Source: Actinomycetales bacterium
GTDB taxonomy: Bacteria; Actinomycetota; Actinomycetes; Actinomycetales; CAWJMD01
Length of the DNA: 64,000 nt
NCBI GenBank assembly: GCA_047974565.1
Contig: JBKECN010000055.1
Span: forward strand, 19,839 to 83,838
Reading direction: 5' to 3'
Shown: in pieces, positions 9,242 to 26,315 of the stretch
Numbering within the stretch: the first letter of the stretch is position 1
Layout: each line of letters starts with the position of its first letter
Position numbers and translations under genes: made by a program
Notes under the pieces: model-generated
Told to the model about the DNA's origin: nothing
The model's input: only the letters and a program-made list of their open reading frames with translations
Database searches by the model: none

Positions 9242-11596
<2,355 letters not shown>

Positions 11597-11705
11597 GCCC
11601 TGACGTGGTGGTCCGCCGCCCGGTCGGGGGGAGCCGGGCGAACCTGTCGCTGGAACGTCGAAGCCGTGCATGCGGCCAATACTGCCCGGGTTCTACGGTG
11701 GTTCC

Positions 11706-12194
11706 ATGACTAGCCCCACATCCCTGCCCGACTTCTCCGCTCCGACCCCTTCGCGACTGGACCAGGTGATGGCCGTCCTGACCCAGTTGGGCGTGAACCC
11801 CGAGATCGACTCGGAAGGTGACGTGTCAATCCGAGTGAACGACCAGCAGTTGTACGTGCGAGTCAGCGACGACGGCCCCGGGATCGTGCGGGTCTTCGGC
11901 CAATGGCAGATCCTGGACGACATCTCCGCGGACCCGGGAGTGCGCTTCGGTGCCGCCCATCACGTCACCGCGACCCACGCCCTGGTCAAGGTGAACATCT
12001 TCAACGACACCCTCGCGGTCGCGGTGGACAATCTCGCGCCGGAGGGGGCCCGTTTCGACGTCTTGCTGTCGAACTCCATCGACGCGGTGTTGTCCGGCGT
12101 CTCGACCTGGCATCGGCTGATCGTGGAATCCTCTGCGCCAACGACCGGCGACGGGGATGCTCCCGCCGAGGGCTCGCCCGGTTCGGGTCAGTAG
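11706..12194 (+). CDS. YbjN-like (putative sensory-transduction/chaperone-like) hypothetical protein
   Basis: The ORF is 11670-12194, with ATG at 11706 (MTSPTSLPDFS...). High GC3. The pattern LTQLGVNPEIDSEGDVSIRV...LYVRV resembles the YbjN family. The function call is weak. Confidence 0.5.
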   Translation: MTSPTSLPDFSAPTPSRLDQVMAVLTQLGVNPEIDSEGDVSIRVNDQQLYVRVSDDGPGIVRVFGQWQILDDISADPGVRFGAAHHVTATHALVKVNIFNDTLAVAVDNLAPEGARFDVLLSNSIDAVLSGVSTWHRLIVESSAPTTGDGDAPAEGSPGSGQ

Positions 12195-12240
12195 CCCTCG
12201 GCGGATTCGCGCACAAGCCTCGGCGGACTCAAGCCCGAAG

Positions 12241-12264
12241 GACGGGCCGGCGAGCCAGCCCGTC
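12241..12264. terminator. GC hairpin (GACGGGC-N10-GCCCGTC) between convergent genes
   Basis: 7-bp perfect inverted repeat read directly from the sequence. It has no clear U-tract. Confidence 0.4.
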
Positions 12265-12315
12265 CCTCTCACCGGCGGCAGATCTGACGGGTGGTCTGCG
12301 GTCGGCTGGTCGCAC

Positions 12316-12332
12316 GGCCCGCCTCGCGGGCC
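12316..12332 (-). terminator. hairpin GGCCCGC-CTC-GCGGGCC directly after the stop of the substrate-binding protein gene
   Basis: 7-bp perfect stem with a 3-nt loop, abutting the stop codon at 12333-12335. Confidence 0.45.
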
Positions 12333-13283
12333 TCAGGGAGCCGGCTTGGCCAGGTCCGCGATCGAGGTGAGCCCGTAGGTCTCGGCGGTCTCGCGGGTGA
12401 CGACGATGGCGTCGGCATCCTGGGCCTGCGACTGCGCCAGGACCGTCAGGCCGTCCGGCAGGGCCTCGGTCAGCGCCGTGTAGACCTCCTCGGAGTCCAC
12501 TGCGGTGGCGTTCGGGTTGAGGTAGCTCAGGATCGTGCCGCTGTACTCGGGCATCAGGTTGATCGAGCCGGCCTCCAGGGCGGGGTAGTACTTCTCCCGG
12601 CTGCCGATGTTGAGCTGGGTGCTGACCTCGGCGCCCTGGGCCCGCAGCGCCTGGGCGTAGATCTCGGCCAGGACGACGTTCTCGGGGAAGTTGGCCGAGC
12701 CGACGGTGAGGGTGACGCCCTGCGCTTGGGTGCCGGCGGCGTCCAGCCCGTTGTCGGCCAGCCACTGGGTGGCCACCGCGGAGGCGTCCTGCTTCTCCTC
12801 CTGGACCTTGGTGAGCATGTCGATCAGGCCCTCGGTGGTGAGCTTGGCCGAGACGGCGTTGAGGGTGCTGGTGACCCCGTCGGTGGCCAGATCCTTGGTG
12901 ATGATCGGCAGCACGTTCTGGGCGGCGAAATTGTTCTCCGGGTCGGTCAGTACGACGAAATCGTTCGCCTTGATCGATGGATCCGTGGTGAACAGGTCGG
13001 CAGCGTCGATCTGCCCGTTCTTCAGGGCGTTGACGGTGACCGGACCCCCCGTGTCGGTGACCGTGTAGTTGCCGAACACCACGCCGTAGTTCTTCTCCAG
13101 GCCGGGCAGGCCGTCCGCGCGGGTCTTGAACTCCGGCGGGCCGCCCATGATCAACTGCGAGGCGATGGTGCCGTCGGCGCTGGAGGCCGATCCGGAGGAT
13201 GTGGTCTCGGCACTGTCCGTGCAGGCGGTGAGCGTGGTCGCGAGGGCGAGCACTGCCGCCCCCACCAGAAGTCGGGTCTTCAT
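12333..13283 (-). CDS. glycine betaine/choline-type ABC transporter substrate-binding lipoprotein (OpuAC/OpuBC family)
   Basis: 316-aa ORF with a lipoprotein signal and lipobox (LATTLTAC). Family-level resemblance to OpuAC. It lies in an operon with two permeases and an ATPase. Confidence 0.8.
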   Translation of the reverse strand: MKTRLLVGAAVLALATTLTACTDSAETTSSGSASSADGTIASQLIMGGPPEFKTRADGLPGLEKNYGVVFGNYTVTDTGGPVTVNALKNGQIDAADLFTTDPSIKANDFVVLTDPENNFAAQNVLPIITKDLATDGVTSTLNAVSAKLTTEGLIDMLTKVQEEKQDASAVATQWLADNGLDAAGTQAQGVTLTVGSANFPENVVLAEIYAQALRAQGAEVSTQLNIGSREKYYPALEAGSINLMPEYSGTILSYLNPNATAVDSEEVYTALTEALPDGLTVLAQSQAQDADAIVVTRETAETYGLTSIADLAKPAP

Positions 13284-13488
13284 CCGTGGGCCTCTCCGTG
13301 ATACCGGCCGGCCGGTGAGCCGATCGGAGGCGTGTGACGCGGGTCGCCGGCCGCGCCGGTGGGTGGTACCCCGCCGAGCCGAGGGTCGTGGTGCTGCAGG
13401 ACGGTCCCTGCGTGGAGGTGATGGTGGATCGGCGGCTGAGTGAGGTGCAGAGTTGGGTCAGGGTATCCGGCGTCCGGTCGGCGAGCGG

Positions 13489-14247
13489 TCACTCTACGGC
13501 CATCGGGCGGCGCAGGCCCAGACGGGCGCGCAGCCCACGGCGCGTATCGGGCTCGAACCGCCCGGTCAGCCCAGCCGAGACGGTGTGCCGCTGGACGTAG
13601 GCGAGCAGGCCATCGGCGAGCAGAGCCAGTGCCGCGACCAGGACACCACCGCTGATCATCTGTGGATAGTCCTGTTGGGCCAGGCCGTCGTAGATGAACC
13701 GGCCAAGACCCCCGAGGGTGACGTAGGAGGCGATGGTGGTGGTGGCGATGACCTGCAAGGTGGCCGAGCGCAGCCCCGAGAAGATCAGCGGCAGGCTGGT
13801 GGGGAACTCGACCCCGGTGAGCACCTGGCGCCCCGTCATGCCCATGCCATAGGCGGCGTCGCGCACCGCCGGGTCGACGTTGTCCACACCCGCGAACGTG
13901 TTGGACAGGATCGGTGGCACTGCCAGCAGCACGAGCACGATCTCGGTCGGAATGAGATAGCCGATGTTCGTGCGGCCGTAGAAGTTCGGGGCGATGATCA
14001 CCACGAGCAGCACGAGCACACCCACGGTGGGTAGCGCTCGCAGCGCGTTCGCCGTCGACACCAGCCAGCGTCCCTTGCCGGTATGCCCGATCAGCAGGCC
14101 CAGCGGCAGCCCGATGAGCAGTGCGATGACCAGGGCGATGAGCGAGAACTCCACGTGGGCGCCGAGTTGGGCCCAGATGCCGGGCTCGAACTGGCTGCCC
14201 CGCCAGTGGGCGCGGTCGCCCAGCCAGTAGGCCACGTCGATGATCAT
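13489..14247 (-). CDS. ABC transporter permease (osmoprotectant/betaine type)
   Basis: Hydrophobic ORF 13489-14328. The start is set at the ATG at 14247, which overlaps the upstream stop (ATGA coupling). Confidence 0.8.
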   Translation of the reverse strand: MIIDVAYWLGDRAHWRGSQFEPGIWAQLGAHVEFSLIALVIALLIGLPLGLLIGHTGKGRWLVSTANALRALPTVGVLVLLVVIIAPNFYGRTNIGYLIPTEIVLVLLAVPPILSNTFAGVDNVDPAVRDAAYGMGMTGRQVLTGVEFPTSLPLIFSGLRSATLQVIATTTIASYVTLGGLGRFIYDGLAQQDYPQMISGGVLVAALALLADGLLAYVQRHTVSAGLTGRFEPDTRRGLRARLGLRRPMAVE

Positions 14248-14969
14248 CGGACCGCCCTGCGCCAGGGGGTCAGCGCCCGGTCCATCAGCACGATGAGCCC
14301 GTCCAGCGCCAGCGCCAACAACACGCACAACACGATGCCAAGCACGATCGGTGGATAGTAGGGCGAGGTGGTGGACAGCTTGAAACCGAGGTCGAACAGG
14401 GACCCGAGGTTGGCCATGCCGATGGTGCCGGCGATCGCCACGATGCTGACATTGGCGACCACTGCCACCCGCAGCCCGGTGGAGATCACCGGGACGGCGA
14501 TCGGAAGCTCGACCCGGAAGAAGCGTCCGACCGGTTTGTAGCCCAAAGCGGTTGCTGCCTGGAGAGTCTCACCAGGTACTGCGAGCAGCGCGTCGGCCAC
14601 CACCCGCACCAGCAGGGCCAGTGAGTACAAGGTGAGGGCAATCGGCACCTGAAGGGGCGAGAGCGGATCCAGCCCGAGCAGGGGAGGCACCAGGACGAAA
14701 AGGGCGATCGAGGGGATGGTGTAGAGGACGCCGGTGATGGACATCATCGGCGAGTAGAGCGGCGGATGCCGGCTGGCGAGCCAGCCCAGTGGCAGCGCCA
14801 GGACCAGCCCGGCGACTACCGGCACGATCGACAGCCAGGTGTGCGCCCAGAGCAGACCCAGCACCTCCCCGGAGTGCTGTTGGAAGTAGGCCCAGGTGCC
14901 CAAGGGGGAGGTGTCCACCGGGCCTGCCGCCAGCACGATGCCCGGGATGAACCCGGTCAGGTCAGGCAT
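14244..14969 (-). CDS. ABC transporter permease (osmoprotectant/betaine type)
   Basis: 241-aa multi-pass hydrophobic ORF that overlaps the ATPase stop. Confidence 0.8.
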   Translation of the reverse strand: MPDLTGFIPGIVLAAGPVDTSPLGTWAYFQQHSGEVLGLLWAHTWLSIVPVVAGLVLALPLGWLASRHPPLYSPMMSITGVLYTIPSIALFVLVPPLLGLDPLSPLQVPIALTLYSLALLVRVVADALLAVPGETLQAATALGYKPVGRFFRVELPIAVPVISTGLRVAVVANVSIVAIAGTIGMANLGSLFDLGFKLSTTSPYYPPIVLGIVLCVLLALALDGLIVLMDRALTPWRRAVR

Positions 14970-16062
14970 GACCGGCTCGTCGGGTGGCTTCGATGCTCTC
15001 CATCACATTGCGGACGTCGAGGGTGCCAAGCAGGGCGCCGGAACCGTCGATGACGATTCCCCGGCCGGACGGCGAGGACAGGCACGAATCGAGGGCCGAG
15101 CGCAGCGACCCGCCCTGGGTGAACACGGTGCCACCCCGGTTGAGCAATGCCTCGGTGACGGTATGGCCGGTGCGCACCGTGTCCAGGTTGAGCCAGCCCT
15201 GTGGGGCATTGGAGGCGTCCACCGCGACGATCCAGGGCCCCGTCTCGCTCGCCGGGGGAATGCCCGCGCCCAGGGGTGCGGTGGCCTCCTCCCGAGTGGG
15301 CAACTCGGCACCGGTGGCGAAGCCGAGCGCCCGGTATCCGCGATCTCGGCCGACGAAGGCGGCGACGAAGGCGTCCACCGGCCGGGCGAGCAGTTCGGCG
15401 GGTGGTGCCAACTGAGCCAACTCGCCGCCGACTCGCATCACCGCGACGCTGTCCCCGAGTTTGATCGCCTCGTCGATGTCGTGGGTGACGAAGACGATCG
15501 TCTTGCCCACCTCGGACTGCAGGCGCAGGAACTCGTCCTGCAGTTGCTCGCGCACCACCGGGTCGACGGCGGAGAAGGGCTCGTCCATGAGCATCACCGG
15601 CGGATCGGCGGCCAGGGCCCGCGCCACGCCCACCCGCTGCTGTTGGCCGCCGGACAGCTGTGCTGGGTACCGCGAGGCGAAGTGCGTCGGCAGGCCGACG
15701 CGCTCCAGAAGTTCCATCCCCCGTGACCGGCTCGCCTTCTTGTCCATTCCGAGCAGGTCGGGAACGGTTGCCACATTCTCCAGAATGGTGCGGTGTGGGA
15801 ACAGCCCGGCGTGCTGGATGACGTAGCCGATCTGACGCCGCAGTTCGTGTGGTGGCAGCGCGGCGGTGTCGGTCTCGTCCAGCCAGATCGTCCCCGACGT
15901 GGGTTCGATCATCCGGTTGATCATCCGCAGGCTGGTGGTTTTCCCGCATCCTGACGGACCGACGAAAACGGTTATCTCACCGTTTGGGGCTACGAGGTCG
16001 AGCTCGTTCACAGCCACTGTTCCGTCGGGAAAGCGCTTGGTGACCTGGTCGAAGCGGATCAC
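14962..16062 (-). CDS. ABC transporter ATP-binding protein with a C-terminal CBS-like regulatory region (OpuCA/ProV-like)
   Basis: Walker A GPSGCGKTT, signature LSGGQQQRV, Walker B VMLMDEPFSAVD, plus about 120 aa of C-terminal extension. Confidence 0.88.
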   Translation of the reverse strand: MIRFDQVTKRFPDGTVAVNELDLVAPNGEITVFVGPSGCGKTTSLRMINRMIEPTSGTIWLDETDTAALPPHELRRQIGYVIQHAGLFPHRTILENVATVPDLLGMDKKASRSRGMELLERVGLPTHFASRYPAQLSGGQQQRVGVARALAADPPVMLMDEPFSAVDPVVREQLQDEFLRLQSEVGKTIVFVTHDIDEAIKLGDSVAVMRVGGELAQLAPPAELLARPVDAFVAAFVGRDRGYRALGFATGAELPTREEATAPLGAGIPPASETGPWIVAVDASNAPQGWLNLDTVRTGHTVTEALLNRGGTVFTQGGSLRSALDSCLSSPSGRGIVIDGSGALLGTLDVRNVMESIEATRRAGHA

Positions 16063-16302
16063 AACGGTCCCTTCGTCCGCCTATGAGATGTGCCTGGATG
16101 GGCACGTTCGTGGTCACCCTAACCGGCGCAGCGGGAACGGTGCGTTTCTCTGGTGTCGGGGTTGTGGATGACGCCGACGTCGGACCGGCGAATTCCTCGG
16201 CTCACAACGGCCCGTTCGGGCATTTCTCCACGGCCGCAGGTGAAATCGGCCTCGTCGACTCCGAGAAATATCAGCCGTAGGGACTATTAATGACTCAAAT
16301 CA

Positions 16303-16370
16303 TCAACCCTGGGGACTACTCGGTATCAACCTCAGGGATTATCCCGGCGAGCCAAATTCAACCCTTGGGA
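16303..16370. promoter_or_regulatory. three direct copies of a 13-mer TCAACC(C)YNNGGGA in an unusually AT-rich divergent intergenic region
   Basis: TCAACCCTGGGGA at 16303-16315, TCAACCTCAGGGA at 16326-16338 and TCAACCCTTGGGA at 16358-16370. Each contains a CCC-N-GGG mini-palindrome. The region lies between the opu-like operon and the SDR gene. Confidence 0.45.
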
Positions 16371-16484
16371 GCACTCATTGGAGTGTCGCCCAGCCCACCG
16401 TCTTCCAGAGGTGGGCGATCAGGGTGGACCCGTACTGTCTGTCCGTGCAGGGGTCCGTCACGGGTCAAGACAGCGGGAGGCGAT

Positions 16485-17399
16485 GTGTACGACATTCCGG
16501 ACCAGCGGGACCGGCGAATCGTGGTGACCGGGGCCAACAGCGGGACCGGCCTGGAGGCCACTCGCCGCCTGGCGCGCGCCGGTGCCCAGATCGTGATGGC
16601 GGTGCGCAGCCTGGACAAGGGCGAGGCGGCTTGCGAGCGGATCCGCCGGGAGATTCCCGGGGCCAGGCTCGAGGTGCGGCGTCTCGACTTGGCCGATCTG
16701 ACTCAGGTGCGGGACTTCTGCGAGGCGCTGGCGCGGGTGGGTGAACCCGTGCACGCGCTGGTCAACAACGCCGGGGTGATGGCTCCGCCGGACCGGATGA
16801 TCACCCGCGACGGTCACGAACTGCAATGGGCGACGAACTTCCTCGGCCCGTTCGCGCTCACCAACCTGCTTCTGCCGGTATTGCTGGCGGCCGATCGTCC
16901 GCGGGTGGTGACCATGTCCAGTTCGGCCGCTGCGCTCGGCCGGATCGATTTCGGCGACCTGGACGCCGAGCGGCGGTACGGCGGGGCCCGCGCATACGCC
17001 CAGTCCAAGCTGGCGGATCTGCTCCTGGCGCTCCGGTTGGCCAGGGTCGCGCACGAGCGCGGCTGGCCCCTGCTCAGCCTGGCCGCCCACCCGGGTTACA
17101 CCCGCACGAACCTGCAGCAGACCGGTCCCCGCCTTGGGCGGGGCCGGGCGACGATCGCCACGCGACTGCTCGATGTGGGCTGGCGGGGACAGGACGTGCG
17201 GGTCGGGGCCGAACCCCTGCTCTACGCGATCGCAGACCCTGGCGCGGTCAACGGGGGCTACTACGGACCCAGCGGTCGGTGGGAGCTGACCGGGCCGACG
17301 GCCAGGGTGCGACCGCCCCGCAGCGCCAACGCTCCCAGCTTGGCCGACTCCCTGTGGGCGGTGGCCGCCGACCTGACCGGAACCGACCTTCCGGCCTGA
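16485..17399 (+). CDS. short-chain dehydrogenase/reductase (SDR) family oxidoreductase
   Basis: The ORF is 16290-17399. The GTG at 16485 has GGGAGG 5 nt upstream. Rossmann motif VVTGANSGTGLE and catalytic YAQSKLA are present. The upstream part of the ORF has low GC3 and contains the 13-mer repeats. Confidence 0.85.
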   Translation: MYDIPDQRDRRIVVTGANSGTGLEATRRLARAGAQIVMAVRSLDKGEAACERIRREIPGARLEVRRLDLADLTQVRDFCEALARVGEPVHALVNNAGVMAPPDRMITRDGHELQWATNFLGPFALTNLLLPVLLAADRPRVVTMSSSAAALGRIDFGDLDAERRYGGARAYAQSKLADLLLALRLARVAHERGWPLLSLAAHPGYTRTNLQQTGPRLGRGRATIATRLLDVGWRGQDVRVGAEPLLYAIADPGAVNGGYYGPSGRWELTGPTARVRPPRSANAPSLADSLWAVAADLTGTDLPA

Positions 17400-17508: not shown

Positions 17509-18186
17509 GTGGCCAGAGCATCAGGGGTACCCGGATCGCGGCTCGGGGCGCGATGTGCCCGAGCCGACGCAGCGGACACCGTCTCGTCCCTTCCCCGGCC
17601 CGTGTGCCTGCTCGCCGTCTCCAGCCTGTCTGGCCCGCACCTGGTGACGGTGACCTCGGTCAGCGTGGCCGCGGTGGACCCGGTGCTGGTGACCGTCGCG
17701 CTCGGCTCGCAGAGCCGGATGAACGGCCTCATCGCAGCCACGGGAGCCTTCGCGCTGGGTGTGCTCGCCGCTGAACAACGGGAGCTGGCCGAACGCTTCG
17801 CCCGGCCGGGACGCGCGCCGGACCTGGCGCAACTGGACGGCCTGCGCTGGCACTCGACCCCGTACTCGAACTCACCCCTGCCTCAGGCCCTCGTTGCCTG
17901 GCTGGACTGCGAACTGGTCGCCCGCAACGCGGCACCCGGCGTATCGGTGATCGTCGGCCAGGCCCGAGCGGTGAGCGGGGCCGGCCGGGGAACGGGGCGG
18001 CCGCTGCTACGGCTGCGCGGGGAGTATCTGCCGGCATCGGCTCCCGTCCGCTCGTCGAACCACCCGCAGCGTCGTGACTCGACGACGCCGGGCCTGCACG
18101 TGGTCACCGGCGGTGCCGGCGACCGAGACAACCGTTGGAGGGAGGTGAAAAGCCATGAAGAAGATCAGCGTGCGCAAGGTCGGTGA
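17509..18186 (+). CDS. flavin reductase-like (FMN-binding split-barrel) protein with a low-complexity C-terminal tail
   Basis: 225-aa ORF. The core (LVTVTSVSVAAVDPVLVTVALG...AFALGVLAAEQRELAERFARPG...) resembles NAD(P)H-flavin reductase domains. The last ~55 aa look non-domain and overlap the small ORF at 18155. Confidence 0.6.
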   Translation: MARASGVPGSRLGARCARADAADTVSSLPRPVCLLAVSSLSGPHLVTVTSVSVAAVDPVLVTVALGSQSRMNGLIAATGAFALGVLAAEQRELAERFARPGRAPDLAQLDGLRWHSTPYSNSPLPQALVAWLDCELVARNAAPGVSVIVGQARAVSGAGRGTGRPLLRLRGEYLPASAPVRSSNHPQRRDSTTPGLHVVTGGAGDRDNRWREVKSHEEDQRAQGR

Positions 18187-18259
18187 GGTGCGCCTCACCG
18201 CCCGGGCCTGTTACTGCTACTGCTGCTGTTGCTGCGCAGGAAGCGTGCTGGCCCCGTGA
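18155..18259 (+). CDS. 34-aa poly-cysteine small ORF: candidate RiPP/metallophore precursor peptide (or Cys-sensing leader peptide)
   Basis: ATG at 18155 is preceded by GGAGGGAGGTGA (18137-18148). It translates to MKKISVRKVGEVRLTARACYCYCCCCCAGSVLAP with stop TGA at 18257-18259. 28 of 33 sense codons end in G/C, like real genes here. It is absent from the ORF track only because it is shorter than 60 aa. Confidence 0.65.
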   Translation: MKKISVRKVGEVRLTARACYCYCCCCCAGSVLAP

Positions 18260-18265
18260 CCCCTC

Positions 18266-18298
18266 GGGTGGCGGCGGGCCGACTTGCCGCCGCCACCC
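18266..18298 (+). terminator. perfect 12-bp GC stem-loop (GGGTGGCGGCGG-N9-CCGCCGCCACCC) 7 nt after the small ORF stop
   Basis: Read directly from the sequence. There is no U-tract, so it would be a partial terminator, processing/stabilising hairpin, or attenuator element. Confidence 0.55.
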
Positions 18299-18324
18299 TC
18301 CAGCACTCCTGGAAGGCACCGCAG

Positions 18325-19596
18325 ATGGACTCCTCGTTGAGATTTCACCCGCTCACCTACCTCCACGACGGCGACGACGTGGTCGTCGGACGGCGGGACG
18401 TGGATGTCTACGTCGCGCTCCCACCCGAAGGCGCCGAACTGCTGCGCCGACTCGAGGGCGGTACTCGTCCGGAGGTGGCCGCGCAGTGGTTCATCCAGAC
18501 CTACGGGGAGAGCGTCGACATGGTCGACTTCATCGAGGCCATGACCGACGCCGGTTTCGTCGTGGGCGACTCGCAGGGTCACCCGGAGAACGGCTCGGTC
18601 CTGGTTGCCGGGACTGGCTCGGCCCGGCAGGCAGGTGCCGCCGGCGACCCCGCCGTGGTACCGCAGGTGCGCTGGCGTCGACTGGCCTCGGCGCTGTTCA
18701 GCACCCCCGCCTGGATCGGGTACGGGGCACTGGTGATCGCAGCGGTGCTGGCCTGCATCGACTCGCCCTCGCTCATACCGGACCACTCGGATGTCTTCTT
18801 CGTGCCATCGCTGGTGGCCATCGAGGTGATCCTGATGGTCCTGACGATTCCGTTGACGTTGGTACACGAGCTCTCTCACGTCCTGGCCGGTCGCCGGCTC
18901 GGGCTGCGCAGCCGAGTCCGGCTGGCAAACCGCTTCTACTTCCTGGTCTTCGAGACGGTCATGGACGGCCTGGTGAGCGTGCCGCGCCGGCAGCGATACC
19001 TTCCGATGCTTGCCGGGCTGCTGGCCGACATCCTCGTGCTGGCCGGTTTGATCTGCCTGGCCTGGCTGTTGCGTGGCCCGGCCCAGACCCTGCCCGGGGC
19101 CGCGCTGGGGTCCGGCCTGGCCCTGGCGCTGGCCTTCACCACGTTGCCCAGGATGGCCTGGCAGGGGTACTTCTTCCTTCGCACGGACGGCTACTACCTG
19201 GTGGCCACGGTCACCGGTTGCCAGAACCTGCACGAGGCGGCCTGGTGGCGGGTCCGTGGCTGGGCGTCGAGGCACACCGGCAGGCGCATCCCGCCCCCCG
19301 ATGCGCGCTCAGATCAATTCAGTGCCAGGGACCTTCAGGTATCGCGCTGGTATGCCCCGCTGCTGCTCGGCGGCTACCTGCTCGCGCTCATCACCCTGTT
19401 CGTCGTCGTCCTGCCGCTCGCCTGGACCTTCTTCTCCCTGGCGTTCACCCGGGTCGGTGCCGGGCCGTCCGCAGGATCGGCCGGCTTCGTCGATGCCGCC
19501 GTGGTGCTGGCCATCACCGCCGGTCAGCTCCTGGCGGCCGGGGTGCTGGCATTGCGGGGCCGGCGCCGGCGAGACAGGGCCGGGACCAACGGCTGA
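18325..19596 (+). CDS. fusion protein: N-terminal PqqD/RRE-like peptide-binding domain plus multi-pass membrane HExxH metalloprotease (M50/YydH-like)
   Basis: The ORF is 18229-19596. The ATG at 18325 has GGAAGG 8 nt upstream. Residues ~5-80 (VYVALPPEGAELLRRLEGGTRPEVAAQWFIQTYGESVDMVDFIEAMTDAGFV) look PqqD-like. HELSH is at nt 18865-18879 inside a TM helix, with several further TM segments and an FFLRTDGYY motif. Confidence 0.7.
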   Translation: MDSSLRFHPLTYLHDGDDVVVGRRDVDVYVALPPEGAELLRRLEGGTRPEVAAQWFIQTYGESVDMVDFIEAMTDAGFVVGDSQGHPENGSVLVAGTGSARQAGAAGDPAVVPQVRWRRLASALFSTPAWIGYGALVIAAVLACIDSPSLIPDHSDVFFVPSLVAIEVILMVLTIPLTLVHELSHVLAGRRLGLRSRVRLANRFYFLVFETVMDGLVSVPRRQRYLPMLAGLLADILVLAGLICLAWLLRGPAQTLPGAALGSGLALALAFTTLPRMAWQGYFFLRTDGYYLVATVTGCQNLHEAAWWRVRGWASRHTGRRIPPPDARSDQFSARDLQVSRWYAPLLLGGYLLALITLFVVVLPLAWTFFSLAFTRVGAGPSAGSAGFVDAAVVLAITAGQLLAAGVLALRGRRRRDRAGTNG

Positions 19597-19758: not shown

Positions 19759-21606
19759 GTGTCAACTCTCACCGTCACCGCGCACCGCAACGATCATGGC
19801 CCCTTCACCGCCCCGGGCAACATCCTGCGGGCGCTGCGCGTCGACCTGCTGCGCGATCACCGTGACCTCCTCCAGGCGCACGATGTCGAGGTGCTTTCGG
19901 CGGCTCCGGAGTACGCGGCCGACCTGGCCAACCTGCGCCCGACGCAGACCTCGTCGATCGATCCCCGAGCGCGGACCCGCTACTACCCGCCCGCGTGGAT
20001 CACCCGGATCTGCCACGGCCTGGTCGATCTCATGCTGGTGCTGGCCGAGCGTGGCGTCCTGCGGACGATCGAGTTCACCCACCTGGCGAACGCGGACCCG
20101 TCCGACACCGAGTTCGTCGCCGTCCTCGCTCGTCGCAGCGCGGGACGGATCCTGGTGCGCGAGGTAGCCGCGCAGGACCCGCCGCCGGCACCGGATCTGG
20201 CCACCTACTACGTTGAAACAGACTGTGTCAGTGACGATCCCGAGGTGTTGTCGGCCTACGTCGAGCTTGAGGAGGCCGTCCGACAGGCCCTGCACGGCAA
20301 GCGGATGCGCCAGATCCGCGAGGCCATCGCCGGGGGATGCACCAGCCTGCGTCGGTGGACCCTGGCCATGCATGCCGAGCGGTCTGGCGACCCGCAGCAG
20401 GCGGTGAGCGCTCTGACCGAGGCGATTGAGGCGTGTGTTCTCGAGGGGTTCTACGACGCCGTCGTCGAGCTGGGGAGCAGGCTCCTGCCGCTCCTGGATC
20501 CGGCGAGCCAGCCGGATGAGCGGTGGCTGGTGATCGCCAAGGTGACTCTGGCGCAAAGTGCCCTGGGTCGCCTGGAGGACGCCGAGGCCGCCTATGACGA
20601 GGCGTGCGCCGCCACCACGCACCCCAGCACGCACCTGCAGAGCTACTACGGGCGAGCCATGCTGCTGACCCGCTTCGCCGAGCCGAGCGAGCGCGACCAT
20701 CGCCGCGCCGAAGCCCTGGTCAACACGGCGATCACCATCGCCTCGTTGCTGCCGGACGACGCACGTCGTGAGTTCAACACGACCTTCAACGAGAACGGGC
20801 TCGCCCTGGTCGAGATGCACCTGGGGAATCTGCACGAGTCGCTGCGCCTGGTGGAGACCGGCATCGCCCGGCTGGACCAGGCCACCGAGCATGACCGGGA
20901 CCTCCAGCATCGATGGGTTCTGGAGCACAACCGAGCCCAACTGCTCACCGCACTGGCCCGCCCGCACGAGGCTCTGGAGTGCTATGCCGAGCTGCTCCAG
21001 GTGGATCCGCACCACAGCGAGTATCACCTCGACCATGCCGGGGTGCTTCGGGCCGTGGGCCGGCTGGAGGAGGCCGAAAGCGAACTGGGCGAGGCGATCC
21101 GGTGCAGTCCGCCATACCCGGAGGCGGTGTACAACCGCGCCGATCTACGTGCCTCCTGCGGCGACCTGGCGGGAGCTGTGGCCGATCTTCGCCGAGTGCT
21201 CGAGCTCGACCCGGCCTTCCCGAATGCCTGCGCCAACCTCGCCGGCCTGCTCCTGGAAGAGGGTCAGGCGCGTCTCGCCCGGGAGGTGGCTGCGAACGGA
21301 TTGCGGGCGGACCCGGCGGACGTCGCATTGCGCACCGTGTTGGCCCAGGCCGAGCATGAACTCGGCGATCTCGACGCGGCAGTGAGCGGATACCGCGCAG
21401 CCCTCGAGATCGACCCGCACTTCGTGCCGGCACTGGCCGGACGAGCTGTCGCGGCCTTCGAGGTCGGCACCGCAGACAGCCTGCACACGGCCGTGGAGTG
21501 TCTGGAGCGAGCGGTCAGGCTCAGCGACGACCCCGACCTGGTCGAGAACCTGGCTCTGGCCGTATCCCGTCAGGAGGTCCTGGGTAAGACCGCCTCGGGA
21601 GACTGA
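19759..21606 (+). CDS. TPR-repeat protein with an uncharacterised ~190-aa N-terminal domain
   Basis: 615-aa ORF. The GTG at 19759 has AAGGAG 7 nt upstream. The C-terminal ~400 aa are tandem TPR-like helices (for example AEAAYDEA, LEEAESELGEAIRCSPPYPEAVYNRADL, YRAALEIDPHFVPAL). Confidence 0.75.
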   Translation: MSTLTVTAHRNDHGPFTAPGNILRALRVDLLRDHRDLLQAHDVEVLSAAPEYAADLANLRPTQTSSIDPRARTRYYPPAWITRICHGLVDLMLVLAERGVLRTIEFTHLANADPSDTEFVAVLARRSAGRILVREVAAQDPPPAPDLATYYVETDCVSDDPEVLSAYVELEEAVRQALHGKRMRQIREAIAGGCTSLRRWTLAMHAERSGDPQQAVSALTEAIEACVLEGFYDAVVELGSRLLPLLDPASQPDERWLVIAKVTLAQSALGRLEDAEAAYDEACAATTHPSTHLQSYYGRAMLLTRFAEPSERDHRRAEALVNTAITIASLLPDDARREFNTTFNENGLALVEMHLGNLHESLRLVETGIARLDQATEHDRDLQHRWVLEHNRAQLLTALARPHEALECYAELLQVDPHHSEYHLDHAGVLRAVGRLEEAESELGEAIRCSPPYPEAVYNRADLRASCGDLAGAVADLRRVLELDPAFPNACANLAGLLLEEGQARLAREVAANGLRADPADVALRTVLAQAEHELGDLDAAVSGYRAALEIDPHFVPALAGRAVAAFEVGTADSLHTAVECLERAVRLSDDPDLVENLALAVSRQEVLGKTASGD

Positions 21607-21800: not shown

Positions 21801-22463
21801 CTAGTCCAGCGGCCGCAACTCGTCGGCGTAGGAGACCGACACCCGGCGCAGCATGCCGCTGGGGCTCACGGCGTACTGGCCCATCCGCCACAGCGGGGGC
21901 GAGTAGGCGTGAATCGACACCGAGTTCGGCTCCAGGCCGGTGAGCCGGTGAATGTGCTCGGGGCCGAAGGAGAAGACCTGCCCGGCCTCCACCCGGGTGG
22001 CGAGTTCCGGTTGCCCGATGGCCAGGTTGTGCTCGATCAGGGCGCCCTCGGCGACGGCCACCGCGCCGGAGGAGATGTCGTGGTCGTGCCAGCCGGTGTC
22101 GTTGGCCGGAGTCCAGCAGAGCACCCACACGTCGATGTGGGAGTCGCGGTACAGGCTCACGTAGTGGCGGTGGTCATCGGTGTAGTCGACGTACTGGTGC
22201 CACAGCTCGGGCCGGGCCGCCACACTCGCGGCCAGCACCCGCAACTCCTGCGAATCCAGGTCGGTGCCGGTAACCGCCTCGAATCCGGCGAAGTCCGGAT
22301 CGTCCGCGTCGGAGAGCGGCTCGGCTCGCTGCGCCGGCACTCCCACGGTGGATGGCCCGGCAACCAGTTGGGCGGCCTCCTCCAACGGGATGGGCTCGGG
22401 GGCCGGTGCCAGCTCCGGTAGAGCCGGGGCGATGGCAGGGTGCGAGGTGAGGCCGTCTGTCAC
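21801..22463 (-). CDS. cysteine dioxygenase type I-like (thiol dioxygenase, cupin) protein
   Basis: The ORF is 21801-22640. The GTG at 22463 has AAAGGAG 7 nt upstream and overlaps the upstream stop (GTGA). Cupin core: DVWVLCWTPANDTGWHDHDISSGAVAV...GPEHIHRL. Confidence 0.75.
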   Translation of the reverse strand: MTDGLTSHPAIAPALPELAPAPEPIPLEEAAQLVAGPSTVGVPAQRAEPLSDADDPDFAGFEAVTGTDLDSQELRVLAASVAARPELWHQYVDYTDDHRHYVSLYRDSHIDVWVLCWTPANDTGWHDHDISSGAVAVAEGALIEHNLAIGQPELATRVEAGQVFSFGPEHIHRLTGLEPNSVSIHAYSPPLWRMGQYAVSPSGMLRRVSVSYADELRPLD

Positions 22464-23629
22464 GGCGAGACTCCTTTCGGTTGTGCCGAGGCCGGCGGGG
22501 CCTGGGTCGGCGTGCGGTCCCCGGGGAGCGGGTCCGGCGGGTGGCCGAGGGCTCGATGGCCCTCGGGGTGGGCAAGGTGGACGGGGTATGCAGTCACGTC
22601 CGTCGTGGATGCCGTACGACCGTCCTGGTGGGTGGGCCATCCGGGACGAAACCCGGCATCCGGCCGGGTGGCGACCGGTGCGCCACGACGGTGGCCGGGC
22701 ACGTGGGGATGAGGCAGAGCGTGCCCTCCCAGCAGCCGGCGAGGGTTGGTGACGCTGATCGCGTGCCAGGCTGCCTCGCCCAGGTGCGGATCCACCGGGT
22801 GGGCGTAGGGCCGGTCGCTGCCCAGCACCACCGTGTCGATGCCGAGGGCCCGCACCAAGGCATCCACGCCCTGCCGGCGATAGGACGAGGTCTCCACGAA
22901 AACCAGGGGATCGACCACGAAGGGTTGTCCGCTGCGTACCGCGAAGCGCTCGTGGTGGGCCGGTGCCAGCCCGGCTCCGGCCGCGAAACAGATTCGTAAC
23001 TCAGGCAGTTCGACCCGGCCTGCGGCTCGGAAGGCCCACCAGGCGGCCTGCATCTGGGTGGGGTAGTCGACCATCGCGGGCCACCACGAGGGCACCGCCG
23101 GGGCTCGGTGCTCCGGGGTTCGGTGTGCCGGCCCGGGGTGGACCAGCACCGGGCGTCCGAGTTCCTCGCAGAGGGCGAGGGTGGCGAGCACTCCGGTGAG
23201 CGCCGCCGGGTCGCGCATCCAGGTGGCCGAGATCTGCAGCCCGACCACCTCTGGACGCTGCAGCCGGTCACGAAGGGCATCGAGGTCTGGCTCGAGGTGG
23301 GTGGTGGCGGCCCAGTAGCCGTAGCGATGGGCTGCGTCGGCGACGCCGCCGTGCCAGGCGTCGAGCAACTCGGCGGCCTCCTCCGGCGGCAGTTCCTCGA
23401 TGCCCAACGGCGTCGACAGCGAGAGCAGGATCAGGTCGATGTCCGGGTCCAGGCGAGACCTGACCGCCGGGTCGTGATCGGTGGGCCTGATCTCGAAGGG
23501 AGCTTCGTACTCGGTGTGCAGGGTCCAGCCGTCCAACCGCGGTGGGCGGTTCCGGCGTCGCAGGGCGTCGATGAGCGCCTCGGGCCACAGATGTTGATGG
23601 ACGTCCACCCGCAGCACTGACCGCTGCAT
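22460..23629 (-). CDS. amidohydrolase-2 (ACMSD-like metal-dependent hydrolase/decarboxylase) family protein with an odd ~90-aa C-terminal tail
   Basis: The ORF is 22460-23791. The ATG at 23629 has GGGAGGTGAGG upstream. The N-terminal motif VDVHQHLWP is typical of the family. The tail after ...NPRRLLGG is Pro/His/Arg-rich with lower GC3. Confidence 0.75.
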   Translation of the reverse strand: MQRSVLRVDVHQHLWPEALIDALRRRNRPPRLDGWTLHTEYEAPFEIRPTDHDPAVRSRLDPDIDLILLSLSTPLGIEELPPEEAAELLDAWHGGVADAAHRYGYWAATTHLEPDLDALRDRLQRPEVVGLQISATWMRDPAALTGVLATLALCEELGRPVLVHPGPAHRTPEHRAPAVPSWWPAMVDYPTQMQAAWWAFRAAGRVELPELRICFAAGAGLAPAHHERFAVRSGQPFVVDPLVFVETSSYRRQGVDALVRALGIDTVVLGSDRPYAHPVDPHLGEAAWHAISVTNPRRLLGGHALPHPHVPGHRRGAPVATRPDAGFRPGWPTHQDGRTASTTDVTAYPVHLAHPEGHRALGHPPDPLPGDRTPTQAPPASAQPKGVSP

Positions 23630-23680
23630 CGACCTCACCTCCCTGTCTGCTCTTGTGACCGCGCTGATGCGCGGTGTACC

Positions 23681-23736
23681 TGGTGCGTCCGGTGGACGCG
23701 GTGTTGCTTGGTGCGTCCGGTGGACGCGGTGCTGCT
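23681..23736. promoter_or_regulatory. two tandem 28-bp repeats, each containing the palindrome GCGTCC-GGT-GGACGC
   Basis: TGGTGCGTCCGGTGGACGCGGTGTTGCT at 23681-23708 and TGGTGCGTCCGGTGGACGCGGTGCTGCT at 23709-23736 (27/28 identical). They lie 52-107 nt upstream of the amidohydrolase start. Confidence 0.5.
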
Positions 23737-24062
23737 CAACTCGCGGCTCGAGCCGTGCTGCTCGCCCGGCGCTGCGTCCGCCAACGGGCACTGCACGAGT
23801 CGGGCCCTCACCCGAGACGGCGATCGCGCCTCGCCGATGGGCCGTGGCGAACCGATCGGTACGGCGCGCACTCCGGCCGACGTCGGCGACGGGGCGCTCT
23901 CAGCGTGTCGTCGCGTGCGCGGCTCTCGACGACCGGCACTACGACCTGCCGCCGGGCGATGCTGCCACCGGAATCGGTGCCGCCGCAGGGTCGGGGTGGG
24001 TCCAAGCCGCTGCCCGGCCGCCGAGGCCGCCTGCTGTCCGCGGGCTCGCGAGACCATCTCAG

Positions 24063-24196: not shown

Positions 24197-25210
24197 GTGG
24201 CTCAACCACGCCGCGTGACTCTGCGCGACATCTCCGCCGACACCGGACTCTCGGTGGCGGCGGTTTCGTACGCGCTGCGTGGGCTGCACGTCCCCGAGGA
24301 GACGCAGATTCGCGTCCGCGAGTCTGCTGAGCGACTCGGCTACAAGGTCAACCCGATCGCCCGCGCCTTGGCATCCGGCCGCTCCGACCAGGTGGGGGTG
24401 ATGTGTCGCTCCCTGGCGGATCTGTGGCAGCAGGGTACCTCCGCCAGGCTTGGCCGGGCACTGCTGGCCACCGGTCGGCAGGCTCTCATCGTCGACTCCT
24501 GTGACGATCCCGATCTGGAGGAAAGACTGGCTCGCCGGCTGCTCGACCAGCGGGTCGACGCCCTGCTCACCTTCCCGGTGAATCCGGCGGCCGAGCACTG
24601 GGCGCAGGCCGCGCAGGAGACCGTGTTGGTCTCCATCGGGGATGCCCTGCCCGGCGCGGCCACGTATGCCGAGATCGTCTTCGACAATCAGCGAGCGGTT
24701 CGCTCGGCCCTCGACGGTCTGGTCGGTCTTGGACATTCGCGAATCGCGGTGCTCACCCACATCGACAACTCGACTCCGGACCGGCCGATCGAACTCGTCG
24801 TGCAGCAGATGGCCGAGGATTCGCACGCCGATATTCGGCTGCACACCTGCATGAGCGACCTCGAAGGGTCGGCCACCGTGGTCACGCGGCTTCTTCAGGG
24901 CGCGGACCCCCCTACCGCTTTCTGCTGTCTGGCGGACTCGATGGCCTACGGCGTCTACTCGGCCGCCCGGGCCCTGGGCCTGTCCATCCCCGAGGACATC
25001 TCCGTGGTTGGCAACGACGACAACCCGATCTCGACGCTGCTCACGCCCCCGCTGTGGAGCTACGAGTGGCCTGTCTCGGAGGTGGTGAGCGCGATCGTCG
25101 ACGCCACCACCGAGGGCGTGGTGGACGAGATCCGCCGGGGCCGTACGGTGATCTCGGCCCGCGAGCATCGCCGAGCATCGGCGGCCGCGCCCCCCGGCGC
25201 GGATTCCTGA
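24197..25210 (+). CDS. LacI-family transcriptional regulator
   Basis: 337-aa ORF with an N-terminal HTH (VTLRDISADTGLSVAAVSYALRG) and a periplasmic-binding-protein-like effector domain. Confidence 0.9.
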   Translation: MAQPRRVTLRDISADTGLSVAAVSYALRGLHVPEETQIRVRESAERLGYKVNPIARALASGRSDQVGVMCRSLADLWQQGTSARLGRALLATGRQALIVDSCDDPDLEERLARRLLDQRVDALLTFPVNPAAEHWAQAAQETVLVSIGDALPGAATYAEIVFDNQRAVRSALDGLVGLGHSRIAVLTHIDNSTPDRPIELVVQQMAEDSHADIRLHTCMSDLEGSATVVTRLLQGADPPTAFCCLADSMAYGVYSAARALGLSIPEDISVVGNDDNPISTLLTPPLWSYEWPVSEVVSAIVDATTEGVVDEIRRGRTVISAREHRRASAAAPPGADS

Positions 25211-25238
25211 GCGTCAGCCGGACCGGGTCGCCTCGGTT

Positions 25239-25303
25239 GGTCGGGGTTGTTTTCGGTCGGGGGTTGCTTTCGATCGGGGCAGGTTGGGGTCAGGGCAGGT
25301 TGG
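25239..25303 (+). repeat. four consecutive ~16-nt G-rich units (GGTCGGGGTTGTTTTC, GGTCGGGGGTTGCTTTC, GATCGGGGCAGGTTGG, GGTCAGGGCAGGTTGG)
   Basis: Read directly from the sequence. It lies between the LacI stop and etfB, and each unit carries a G3-5 tract. Confidence 0.6.
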
Positions 25304-25505
25304 TCTGCCATGGTTTGGCAGGTGGAGCCAGGTGGTTGAGACTGGCGGCGTCGCACCCCAGGTCGGCACGGCCGAATGCTACTTGCGGGTAATCACCGTC
25401 TAGGGTGATGCCTGCATCACACCAAGCGTGACCGGGATGGCCTGAGCTGCCGCCGCCTGGCAGGGTGTGAACTCTCAGCGTCATCGTCCAAGGAGGGATG
25501 AGTTC

Positions 25506-26285
25506 GTGAAGATCGTCGTCTGTGTCAAGTACTGTCCGGACGCTCAGGCAGACCGGCGGTTCACCGCCGACAACACCACCGAGCGTGAGGCGGTCGACGG
25601 TGTCCTCTCCGAACTGGACGAGTACGCGGTCGAGCAGGCCCTGGTGATCACCGAGGCCGAAGGGGGCGAGGTCGTCGCCCTGACCATCGGCCCCGAGCCG
25701 GCCAGCCTGGCGGTACGCAAGTCGTTGCAGATGGGGGCCGACTCGGGTGTCCACGTGCAGGACGACGCGATCCATGGCTCCGATGCGGTAGCGACGTCCC
25801 TGTTGCTGGCCCGCGCCGTGGAGAAGGTGGGCGACGTCGACCTAGTGATGACCGGGATGTCCTCCACCGACGGGGCGATGGGCGTGGTCCCGACGATGGT
25901 CGCGGCCCGACTCGGACTGCCCGCGGTCACCTACGCCTCCGAACTCACCGTGGGCGGCGGGTCGGTGACCGCGGTGCGCGACGGCGACGCCTCCTCGCAG
26001 ACCGTCACCGCGAGCCTGCCCGCTGTGATCTCGGTGACCGACCACATCAACGAGCCGCGCTACCCCTCCTTCAAGGGCATCATGGCGGCGAAGAAGAAGC
26101 CGGTGGAGACTTGGTCGTTGGCCGACCTCGGGGTGGACGCCGGGCAGGTGGGTCTGGGGGCATCCTGGACGAACGTGTCGGCGGTCACCGCCCGCCCGCC
26201 TCGCGAGGCCGGGGAGATCGTCACCGATGAGGGAGACGGCGGAGCCAAGCTCGTCGAGTTCCTCAAAGCCCGCAAGTTCGCCTGA
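25506..26285 (+). CDS. etfB: electron transfer flavoprotein beta subunit
   Basis: The GTG at 25506 follows AAGGAGGG. The N-terminus VKIVVCVKYCPD is typical of EtfB/FixA. Confidence 0.92.
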   Translation: MKIVVCVKYCPDAQADRRFTADNTTEREAVDGVLSELDEYAVEQALVITEAEGGEVVALTIGPEPASLAVRKSLQMGADSGVHVQDDAIHGSDAVATSLLLARAVEKVGDVDLVMTGMSSTDGAMGVVPTMVAARLGLPAVTYASELTVGGGSVTAVRDGDASSQTVTASLPAVISVTDHINEPRYPSFKGIMAAKKKPVETWSLADLGVDAGQVGLGASWTNVSAVTARPPREAGEIVTDEGDGGAKLVEFLKARKFA

Positions 26286-26315
26286 GTCCGACGACGTAAC
26301 TGGAGGTTTCTGATC

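Follow-up and report, generated by a model that had tools for sequence, protein, structure and literature searches.

What is encoded by the 34 codons at 18155-18259 on the forward strand of a 64,000-nucleotide stretch of an Actinomycetales genome (assembly GCA_047974565.1, contig JBKECN010000055.1), where a run of cysteines and tyrosines lies immediately upstream of a gene for a membrane metalloprotease-like protein? The whole of this stretch is termed the window below, and coordinates without a locus name are its own. We consider it highly likely that the open reading frame (ORF) encodes the precursor of a maturation system in which a membrane protease bearing a RiPP recognition element (RRE; RiPP, ribosomally synthesised, post-translationally modified peptide) works alongside a tetratricopeptide repeat (TPR) protein that resembles the enzyme BhaC1. 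The proposed pathway taken as a whole, that is, a new RiPP family widespread in Actinomycetota, is in our estimation probable. Judged by gene content and order, the core of the system appears to comprise the precursor, an RRE-HExxH metalloprotease and the BhaC1-like TPR protein, often with a flavin reductase as a fourth member.

The precursor ORF

The precursor gene consists of 34 codons and a stop, beginning with an ATG at 18155 and ending with the stop codon at 18257-18259, and its product is MKKISVRKVGEVRLTARACYCYCCCCCAGSVLAP. A Shine-Dalgarno sequence, GGAGGGAGGTGA (18137-18148, forward strand), lies 6 nt 5′ of the ATG, and 28 of the 33 codons that follow the ATG end in G or C. The peptide can be divided into a leader block, M1-T15 (MKKISVRKVGEVRLT; 18155-18199), which is the predicted recognition sequence of the RRE, and a core region, ARACYCYCCCCCAGSVLAP (18200-18256), whose first Tyr stands at +5 after the leader Thr and whose CYCYCCCCC segment holds 7 Cys and 2 Tyr within 9 residues. 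A preliminary description of this DNA, made from its letters alone, had reported the ORF with its sequence and translation, the Shine-Dalgarno element, the proportion of G/C-ending codons and the density of Cys and Tyr; on re-reading and recounting the window DNA, we obtained the same values for all four.

Underlying the Cys tract is an imperfect (CTG/TGC)n run (18214-18235, forward strand), which Tandem Repeats Finder describes as having a period of 3, 7.3 copies and 78% matches. Since a poly-Cys frame can arise by chance in G+C-rich repeat DNA, the case for a gene must rest on comparison. Read on the opposite strand, the same repeat yields terminal poly-Gln stretches in spurious ORFs. Slippage of the repeat during replication could alter the number of Cys residues, and relatives possess between four and seven Cys in the tract. 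The precursor peptide itself gave no match when compared with Pfam, NCBIfam and PADLOC.

Occurrence of the precursor across genomes and metagenomes

An equivalent small ORF, on the same strand and directly 5′ of a homologue of the 18325-19596 gene, was found in three genome loci, in another five loci from genomes or assemblies (Micromonospora, Lentzea, Dactylosporangium, Nocardia and the NCBI assembly L009), and in nearly all of 80 metagenome loci with enough upstream sequence. The order of small ORF, RRE-HExxH gene and TPR gene is kept in Micromonospora, Lentzea, Dactylosporangium, Nocardia and several metagenome-assembled genomes, and likewise across the 80 metagenome loci. In addition, 46 annotated small proteins were recovered with a profile of six precursor peptides; one of them (P0121, in a public collection) is identical to the precursor of the window.

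The N-terminal part of these peptides, MKKIxVRKxGxVRLT, is near-invariant, its positions being 90-100% conserved among 86 distinct genes. In the same 86 genes the codon entropy of the leader is 1.07 at third positions versus 0.57 at first and 0.40 at second positions, and two residues, R7 and T15, occur in 86 of 86 genes, each being specified by four different codons. An ATG or GTG stands immediately 5′ of the KK residues in 79 of 87 distinct precursor genes, and a Shine-Dalgarno core is suitably placed in 72 of the 87 (5 nt long in 65 and 4 nt in 7). Because of the positional relatives, which number more than 100, the synonymous drift of the leader, and the conserved start and Shine-Dalgarno core, the 34-codon ORF appears to be a real gene under purifying selection and not a repeat accident.

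In several loci, precursor genes form tandem arrays 5′ of a single protease/TPR pair: two genes in L020 (5377-5844), three in L016 (5404-5843), six in L026 (3091-4373) and seven in L033 (426-1428). Within these arrays the precursors share the same leader and differ in their PLY-x-x-x-C cores. Leaders that are conserved, cores that vary and precursor genes that are multiplied make up the classical RiPP pattern. The preliminary description had read the ORF as a precursor of the RiPP type, made up of a leader and a Cys-rich core, and had proposed looking for its conservation beside homologues of the PqqD-protease gene; the orthologous loci, with their conserved leader and variable core, bear out that reading.

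Two groups of precursors depart from the common form. In L054, L056, L079, L080 and L087, the precursors carry an N-terminal extension of 15-20 residues ahead of the conserved block, as in MNSVNTQQITEPPVLKTIAVRKAGSIRPT, and have Pro instead of Leu in the RLT motif. Variant precursors in L040 (1335-1415) and L043 (672-758) have leaders ending in IRPT and near-pure-Cys cores that lack Tyr (CCCCCCCGSAAA and CCCCRCCCGGIAAA, respectively). Downstream of the L043 precursor only broken ORFs were seen and no intact TPR gene was detected, which may reflect assembly errors or decay.

Tyr and Cys in the core

The cores are hypervariable, with 116 distinct sequences of 10-27 residues, and two features recur among them. 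Cys is present in all 116 and Tyr in 113. In 108 of the 113 Tyr-containing cores the first Tyr lies 5-7 residues past the leader Thr, and in 111 of the 113 a Tyr and a Cys are at most five residues apart. Such a Tyr/Cys pair in a fixed register looks like a chemical requirement.

Cores with four or more Cys account for 44 of the 116, exemplified by YCYCCCCC, YCYGCCCC and YCYCNCCCC. The remaining 72 have fewer than four, and 52 of them have exactly one; subclasses with one or two Cys include AAFYDDPSCPI, PLYGxxC and SCYCGG. On these sequences, the signature of the family appears to be Tyr plus Cys and not poly-Cys, the latter defining one large subclass. Hence, the Cys-rich core emphasised in the preliminary description holds for the window and for the subclass of 44, and does not hold as a hallmark of the family, whose constants are one Cys and a Tyr.

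The RRE-HExxH membrane protein

The gene at 18325-19596 (forward strand) encodes a 423 aa protein with the model features and motifs of an intramembrane metalloprotease, and we predict that it is the leader peptidase of the system. Its homologues number in the hundreds in Actinomycetota. A hidden Markov model scan of 1.84 billion cluster representatives returned 660 clusters at E<=1e-30 and 1165 clusters at E<=1e-10, which puts the family, spread over Actinomycetes, Acidimicrobiia and Thermoleophilia, at no fewer than 660 clusters (at 50% identity).

The AlphaFold2 model, for which 56 homologues were used, has a predicted local distance difference test (pLDDT) score of 88.5, with values mostly of 81-98 over residues 1-80 (18325-18564). 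This N-terminal region is modelled as three β-strands followed by three helices. Foldseek comparison of the domain with the PDB places lasso peptide B1 proteins at the top, namely 5v1u and 5v1v (TbiB1) and 6jx3, with a probability of 1.00 and template-modelling scores of 0.67-0.69; all three structures were solved with leader peptide bound. Further Foldseek matches are TigE, PqqD, and the RREs of CteB and SkfB. The Pfam PqqD model matches 12 of the 56 family members weakly, the window protein scoring E=0.14, which is below threshold. The modelled fold and the Foldseek matches support the assignment of the N-terminal domain to the RRE fold despite this sub-threshold Pfam score.

The remainder of the protein, towards the C-terminus, is modelled as a helical membrane domain. 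It carries a HELSH (HExxH) putative zinc-binding motif at residues 181-185 (18865-18879), within a predicted membrane helix that spans residues 163-191 of the model. Some 25 residues past the HExxH lies a sequence with the consensus FETxLDG, which is FETVMDG in the window protein, and H181, E182, H185, E210 and G215 are invariant in the 56 homologues. The preliminary description, which had proposed a PqqD/RRE-like domain fused to a membrane metalloprotease, is thus upheld by the modelled RRE fold and by the HExxH and xDG motifs of the membrane domain. Weak matches to Peptidase_M50 occur in 23 of the 56 members. The NCBIfam model daptide_HExxH is matched by one of the 56, the window protein itself, at 21.4 bits against a 300-bit cut-off (residues 116-321 on model positions 112-309), and lasso_PqqD_Strm is matched weakly by two members. 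No other Pfam or NCBIfam model matches the RRE-HExxH protein of the window as a family, and a profile of the full protease found no match among PDB sequences.

The TPR protein is distantly related to BhaC1 and AmmC1

The next gene, at 19759-21606 on the forward strand, encodes a 615 aa protein in which Pfam TPR matches, an AlphaFold2 model and hhalign comparisons delineate an α/β N-domain (residues 1-140; 19759-20178) followed by a long TPR/helical domain. A homologue of this protein follows the protease gene in 65 of the 67 loci with enough sequence, and from this gene order it appears to be the obligate partner of the RRE-protease. Over its N-terminal 360 residues, which were the part searched, it is 100% identical to a 615 aa protein of an NCBI metagenome-assembled genome, and the window seems to derive from such a genome of an uncultured member of the Actinomycetales. 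The model (pLDDT 90.7) shows the small N-terminal domain and then about 17 helical hairpins. Foldseek comparison of the model with the PDB returned generic TPR proteins only, and a profile of the N-domain found no match among PDB sequences.

In an alignment of 48 homologues, the invariant polar residues are concentrated in the N-domain and in the helical domain's first half. The invariant set comprises H9, R24, R72, T73, R74, Y76, D113, D116, R125 and R126, followed by H179, H205, C226, Y297, R305, N346, H384 and N391. So many invariant polar residues exceed what a passive scaffold would need. The N-domain contains a P-loop-like GPxTAAG sequence without the Walker A lysine, alongside the invariant RTRxY and RR motifs, and in four homologues it gives weak, partial matches to AAA_16 (E 1.7e-5 to 0.013) that cover the second half of that model. 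The N-domain may descend from a P-loop domain and have been put to use for another ligand, possibly flavin. A STAND/AAA_16 function was considered and rejected, since the matches are weak and partial and the Walker A lysine is lacking; they would indicate a deep kinship of fold at most.

The enzymes BhaC1 and AmmC1 have a TPR domain, depend on FMN and convert the C-terminal Trp of a peptide to a hydroxyquinone by trihydroxylation (PMC11002830, PMC9850906). BhaC1 has no recognisable flavin-binding domain, performs better where flavin reductases are present, and depends for its activity on how far the recognition residues are spaced from the target residue (PMC9850906). We rebuilt nine BhaC1-family sequences from the supplementary alignment of that paper, as read by optical character recognition (OCR), and compared them with the TPR family by means of hhalign profiles. 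Over the whole protein, the local alignment covers 450 collinear columns (Prob 98.3%, E 1.7e-14) and the global alignment 548 columns (Prob 99.4%, E 8.6e-21). The non-TPR N-domain alone aligns over 130 columns (Prob 94.1%, E 1.3e-7) and the middle region alone over 160 columns (Prob 83.4%, E 8.4e-6), while reversed-template controls for these two regions gave Prob 0.1-0.2%, E 0.34-0.44 and 11-15 columns.

The motifs brought together by these alignments are, in the TPR family and BhaC1 respectively, GPYTaaG and GYSGIA, VAPEL and FAPEI, P-ERTRfY and APSsRRRLH, LYTRF and YTKRL, FNENGLAL and WLYNLKAL, and HRSVLxYN and HxIKINILSN. The Asn of the last pair may be the BhaC1 Asn that is predicted to contact the substrate ring, on the unchecked numbering of an OCR-derived sequence. 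The profile comparisons argue for a distant kinship of the TPR protein with the BhaC1/AmmC1 enzyme family, short of orthology, and make it a candidate modifying enzyme, conceivably one that oxidises Tyr.

The flavin reductase, the hairpin and the surrounding genes

The gene preceding the precursor, at 17509-18186 on the forward strand, encodes a flavin reductase-like protein (PF01613; Pfam Flavin_Reduct, E=4e-21). Its 3′ end overlaps the start of the precursor gene by 32 nt (18155-18186) in a different frame. The Pfam domain ends at residue 173 of 225, so that the last ~50 residues lie past it, and the overlap suggests either tight translational packing or a read-through tail. A flavin reductase gene adjoins the system in 26 of 90 loci including the window, always on the same strand; it lies just 5′ of the precursor in 12 of them and just 3′ of the TPR gene in 14. 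In two annotated genomes it shares a stop/start overlap with the adjoining gene. All-against-all clustering of the ORFs from the 90 loci identified it as the sole other widely shared gene, and its placement suggests an accessory role in the system.

Just past the precursor stop, a G+C-rich hairpin with a perfect stem of 12 bp, a loop of 9 nt and no U-tail can be drawn at 18266-18298 on the forward strand. The position of this hairpin recurs without conservation of its sequence: 66 of 70 distinct loci have an uninterrupted stem of 8 bp or more, and the 70 nt after the last precursor stop have a median z of -3.1 relative to shuffles, with z below -2 in 51 of the 70. The stem leaves the ribosome binding site for the next gene uncovered (GGAAGG, about 18311-18316), and a scan of the locus for terminator and promoter consensus sequences gave no match. 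In lantibiotic operons, a hairpin after the precursor gene acts as a partial terminator or mRNA-stabilising element. By analogy, the hairpin described here probably raises the amount of precursor transcript over that of the enzymes in one of these two ways.

The other neighbours in the window differ from locus to locus. An SDR gene (16290-17399), a cysteine dioxygenase-like gene and an amidohydrolase gene were considered as members of the system and set aside, as none is conserved in other loci. The latter two lie on the reverse strand and converge on the TPR gene, the first encoding a cysteine dioxygenase type I-like cupin (21801-22640; PF05995, E=7e-16) and the second an Amidohydro_2 protein (22460-23791). 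Neither was present in any of the eight other loci searched for them (L001-L009). Further out are ordinary genes, which comprise an isoamylase/GlgX-like enzyme and an OpuA-type glycine-betaine ABC transporter of four genes at 9242-16062, and a LacI-family regulator with the β and α subunits of an electron-transfer flavoprotein at 24197-27263. A role of the system in anti-phage defence was also considered and found no support from PADLOC.

Between 9 and 27 kb of the window we found none of the enzymes that mark lanthipeptides, thiopeptides, sactipeptides, ranthipeptides (SCIFF), bufferins or methanobactins (LanB/M/KC/L, YcaO, radical SAM-SPASM, MNIO/DUF692), nor was a gene for any of these enzymes conserved across the compared loci. 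SARP/BTAD regulators occur near the system in 11 loci. In the Lentzea locus (L005, 801-7525), the system adjoins a class II lanthipeptide cluster (a LanM-type gene, a DUF6229 precursor and an ABC transporter) together with two SARP/BTAD regulators.

A proposed maturation pathway

We propose the following course of events. The strong Shine-Dalgarno sequence would drive translation of the precursor, whose mRNA would be raised over that of the enzymes by the stem-loop past its stop. The RRE at the cytoplasmic N-terminus of the membrane protein would then bind the near-invariant basic leader, KKIxVRK-xG-xVRLT. The Tyr of the core at +5 to +7 would be oxidised by the TPR protein with reduced flavin from the adjacent reductase, and neighbouring Cys thiols could attack the resulting Tyr catechol or quinone to give S-aryl cross-links, as in cysteine tryptophylquinone (CTQ). 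For the window core, with its two Tyr and seven Cys, one may speculate that the product would be compact, heavily cross-linked and rich in sulfur, and possibly metal-binding or redox-active. Finally, the HExxH domain would remove the leader at or in the membrane, presumably within the small-residue stretch past RLT.

The biogenesis of CTQ in quinohemoprotein amine dehydrogenase provides a precedent, in that a flavoenzyme hydroxylates an aromatic residue of a small Cys-rich peptide, after which a Cys-to-ring thioether is formed. This is a conceptual parallel only: the CTQ enzymes, QhpG and the radical SAM protein QhpD, differ from those considered here, and the CTQ product is a protein-bound cofactor. 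The specific Tyr-quinone/Cys chemistry, which is drawn by analogy, is possible and decidedly tentative. More doubtful still is the full proposal of a new RiPP class in which a BhaC1-like enzyme turns an internal Tyr into a (hydroxy)quinone, Cys residues add to it as cysteinyl-tyrosylquinone S-aryl cross-links, and the peptide is released by RRE-guided intramembrane cleavage.

A number of observations weigh against this scheme. We infer both the modification of the product and the site of cleavage from sequence and models. Three cores, those of L040, L043 and P0164, lack the Tyr on which the chemistry would take place. With respect to the protease, none of the M50 matches in the family reaches the gathering threshold of PF02163, and Foldseek comparison of the membrane domain with the PDB gave no convincing solved structure, site-2 protease (S2P) included. 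The TPR family and BhaC1 share ~14% identity, as calculated with OCR-derived BhaC1 sequences, and the last ~70 residues, which in BhaC1 contain the C-terminal KLNRPFDLxNLY, align unconvincingly, DDPDLxxNL bearing a loose resemblance to that motif. The flavin reductase is absent from 22 of 36 full-context loci, including that of the closest relative (L001), and present in 14. Among the conserved neighbours across the compared loci there is no PEARL (LanB-like) ligase, and no transporter is conserved across loci.

Alternative explanations

The locus might instead serve peptide signalling without any modification, with the ORF encoding a pro-pheromone that is clipped by the membrane metalloprotease, as Eep does for the SHP and sex pheromones of Firmicutes, and with the TPR protein acting as a cytoplasmic receptor of the RRNPP type. 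The trio of a small peptide, an M50-like membrane protease and a large TPR protein fits such an arrangement, cores vary in pheromone families too, the window has no radical SAM, YcaO, LanM or MNIO enzyme, and the locus clustering revealed no further widely shared gene besides the flavin reductase. A receptor, however, would have no need of the same-strand, adjoining flavin reductase seen in many loci, and the TPR protein lacks an output domain, whether for DNA binding or otherwise; its homology to the BhaC1/AmmC1 enzymes extends along its length, the non-TPR N-domain included. Moreover, the invariant Tyr/Cys pair in fixed register resembles a chemical requirement, precursors occur in arrays of up to seven, and there is no export or import system. 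We regard signalling as improbable. A second reading accepts modification and restricts its outcome: in a scaffold or cofactor pathway of the pearlin/ammosamide, PQQ or mycofactocin kind, only the Tyr-Cys unit would become an excised small molecule of the thio-quinone type, with the remainder of the peptide as a disposable carrier. Tyr and Cys are indeed the sole conserved residues of the core, a PqqD-type domain is present, and the known relatives of the partner enzyme act in scaffold pathways (PMC9850906, PMC12424672). Cofactor precursors, on the other hand, are normally single-copy and conserved, while the cores described here are hypervariable, often have many Cys and occur in arrays; and the system encodes a single protease, without the PEARL, TldD/E or dipeptidase genes of the amm and bha clusters. 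This reading is unlikely, in our view.

The preliminary description had named two further options that would make the Cys run itself the point of the ORF. In the first, a ribosome short of cysteine would stall in the run and a hairpin would control the operon; seven Cys codons within nine followed by a strong stem-loop suit such an attenuator, and the polycysteine short ORFs of mycobacteria are a precedent (10.1101/834739). It is nevertheless rejected, because single-Cys cores carry the same leader, hairpin and downstream genes: 72 of the 116 cores have fewer than four Cys, 52 of these just one, and it is the amino acids outside the Cys run that are under strong purifying selection. In addition, the hairpin at 18266-18298 leaves the ribosome binding site for the next gene free, the downstream genes (RRE-protease and TPR protein) do not belong to cysteine metabolism, and the ORF, with its Shine-Dalgarno sequence and a start inside the upstream same-strand gene, is not leaderless, the 5′ end of the transcript being unmapped. 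The low-Cys orthologous cores, the Shine-Dalgarno sequence and the nature of the downstream genes contradict this option, which we consider extremely unlikely. The other option, a free-standing MymT-like mini-metallothionein, may be taken together with the view that the ORF is a chance product of the trinucleotide repeat. The density of thiols speaks for the former and the imperfect (TGC)n run beneath the Cys tract for the latter. Yet the frame, leader, Shine-Dalgarno sequence and position are kept in about 90 loci with different codons and very different cores, many of which have a single Cys, and the peptide is tied to both an RRE domain and a protease; a metallothionein would leave the leader, the RRE and the protease unexplained. 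Both are very unlikely. Metal binding by the mature product is possible, solely as a property of the processed peptide. It seems, then, that a precursor matured by the RRE-protease and the BhaC1-like protein remains the reading that is best matched by the locus.

Significance and comparison with known systems

In the literature searched, we found no paper in which the leader or core sequences are printed or this combination of genes is described. RRE-Finder and the 2025 RRE survey make no mention of an HExxH or TPR context, the supplement of the daptide paper does not list the Tyr/Cys precursor family, and no curated Pfam or NCBIfam model covers the precursor, the protease or the TPR protein. 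TMcins were considered as a match for the system and proved unrelated. The building blocks, namely a RiPP precursor, an RRE, an S2P-like leader peptidase and a BhaC1-like flavoenzyme, are of known kinds; what appears to be new is the family of precursors, the way in which the blocks are combined, and the likely chemistry.

If the proposal is correct, the system represents a large RiPP family that is unnamed and uncharacterised, and its more than 100 natural core sequences constitute a ready-made chemical diversity, in which the poly-Cys members, with up to seven thiols in nine residues, are unusual peptides in themselves. The range of BhaC1-type TPR flavoenzymes would then extend from the C-terminal Trp on pearlin scaffolds to an internal Tyr of leader-core precursors, RRE-guided intramembrane leader removal would have its second case after the daptides, and Tyr-quinone/Cys cross-linking may be revealed as a RiPP modification. 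As the system is small (three to four genes, about 4 kb), it is directly testable by heterologous expression.

In its general features the locus agrees with an RRE-dependent RiPP system: a short precursor stands beside an RRE protein across taxa, a conserved leader is combined with a variable core, and the RRE fold is present. The membrane domain likewise shares with Peptidase M50 and the site-2 proteases an HExxH in a membrane helix and a downstream Asp-containing motif of the LDG type. With the stand-alone RREs of the lasso B1 and PqqD type, the protein shares a three-strand, three-helix fold in its N-terminal 80 residues; it differs in that the RRE is fused to a membrane metalloprotease, there is neither a lasso cyclase nor a B2 cysteine protease, and the leader lacks the YxxPxL motif of lasso peptides. 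The mycobacterial polycysteine attenuators (10.1101/834739) are similar in being short, actinobacterial Cys-run ORFs that come first in an operon, whereas the ORF described here is not leaderless, its peptide and not its Cys run is conserved, and its downstream genes are unrelated to cysteine metabolism.

The two closest comparisons concern the putative enzymes. The TPR protein resembles BhaC1 and AmmC1 in its size (about 600-670 aa), in having an N-terminal α/β domain followed by a helical/TPR domain, in its presumed use of a ribosomal peptide as substrate, and in its link to flavin reductase activity. The presumed target here is an internal Tyr, in contrast to the C-terminal Trp that a PEARL enzyme appends for BhaC1; the substrate peptide is basic where theirs is strongly acidic; and the protein is paired with an RRE-protease. 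For the RRE-HExxH component, the closest known relative is MpaP, the leader peptidase of the daptides, in which an RRE is N-terminal to an intramembrane site-2-type protease (PMC10036551). The two have in common their two-domain architecture, the adjoining short precursor genes, of which there are sometimes several per locus, and their occurrence in Actinomycetota. The peptides are dissimilar: the leader here is MKKIxVRKxGxVRLT and that of daptides ELExMEAP, and the cores contain Tyr and Cys, while daptide cores are aliphatic with an invariant C-terminal Thr. The enzymes that accompany the protease also differ, as MpaB, MpaC, MpaD and MpaM have no counterpart here and the partner is, instead, the BhaC1-like TPR protein.

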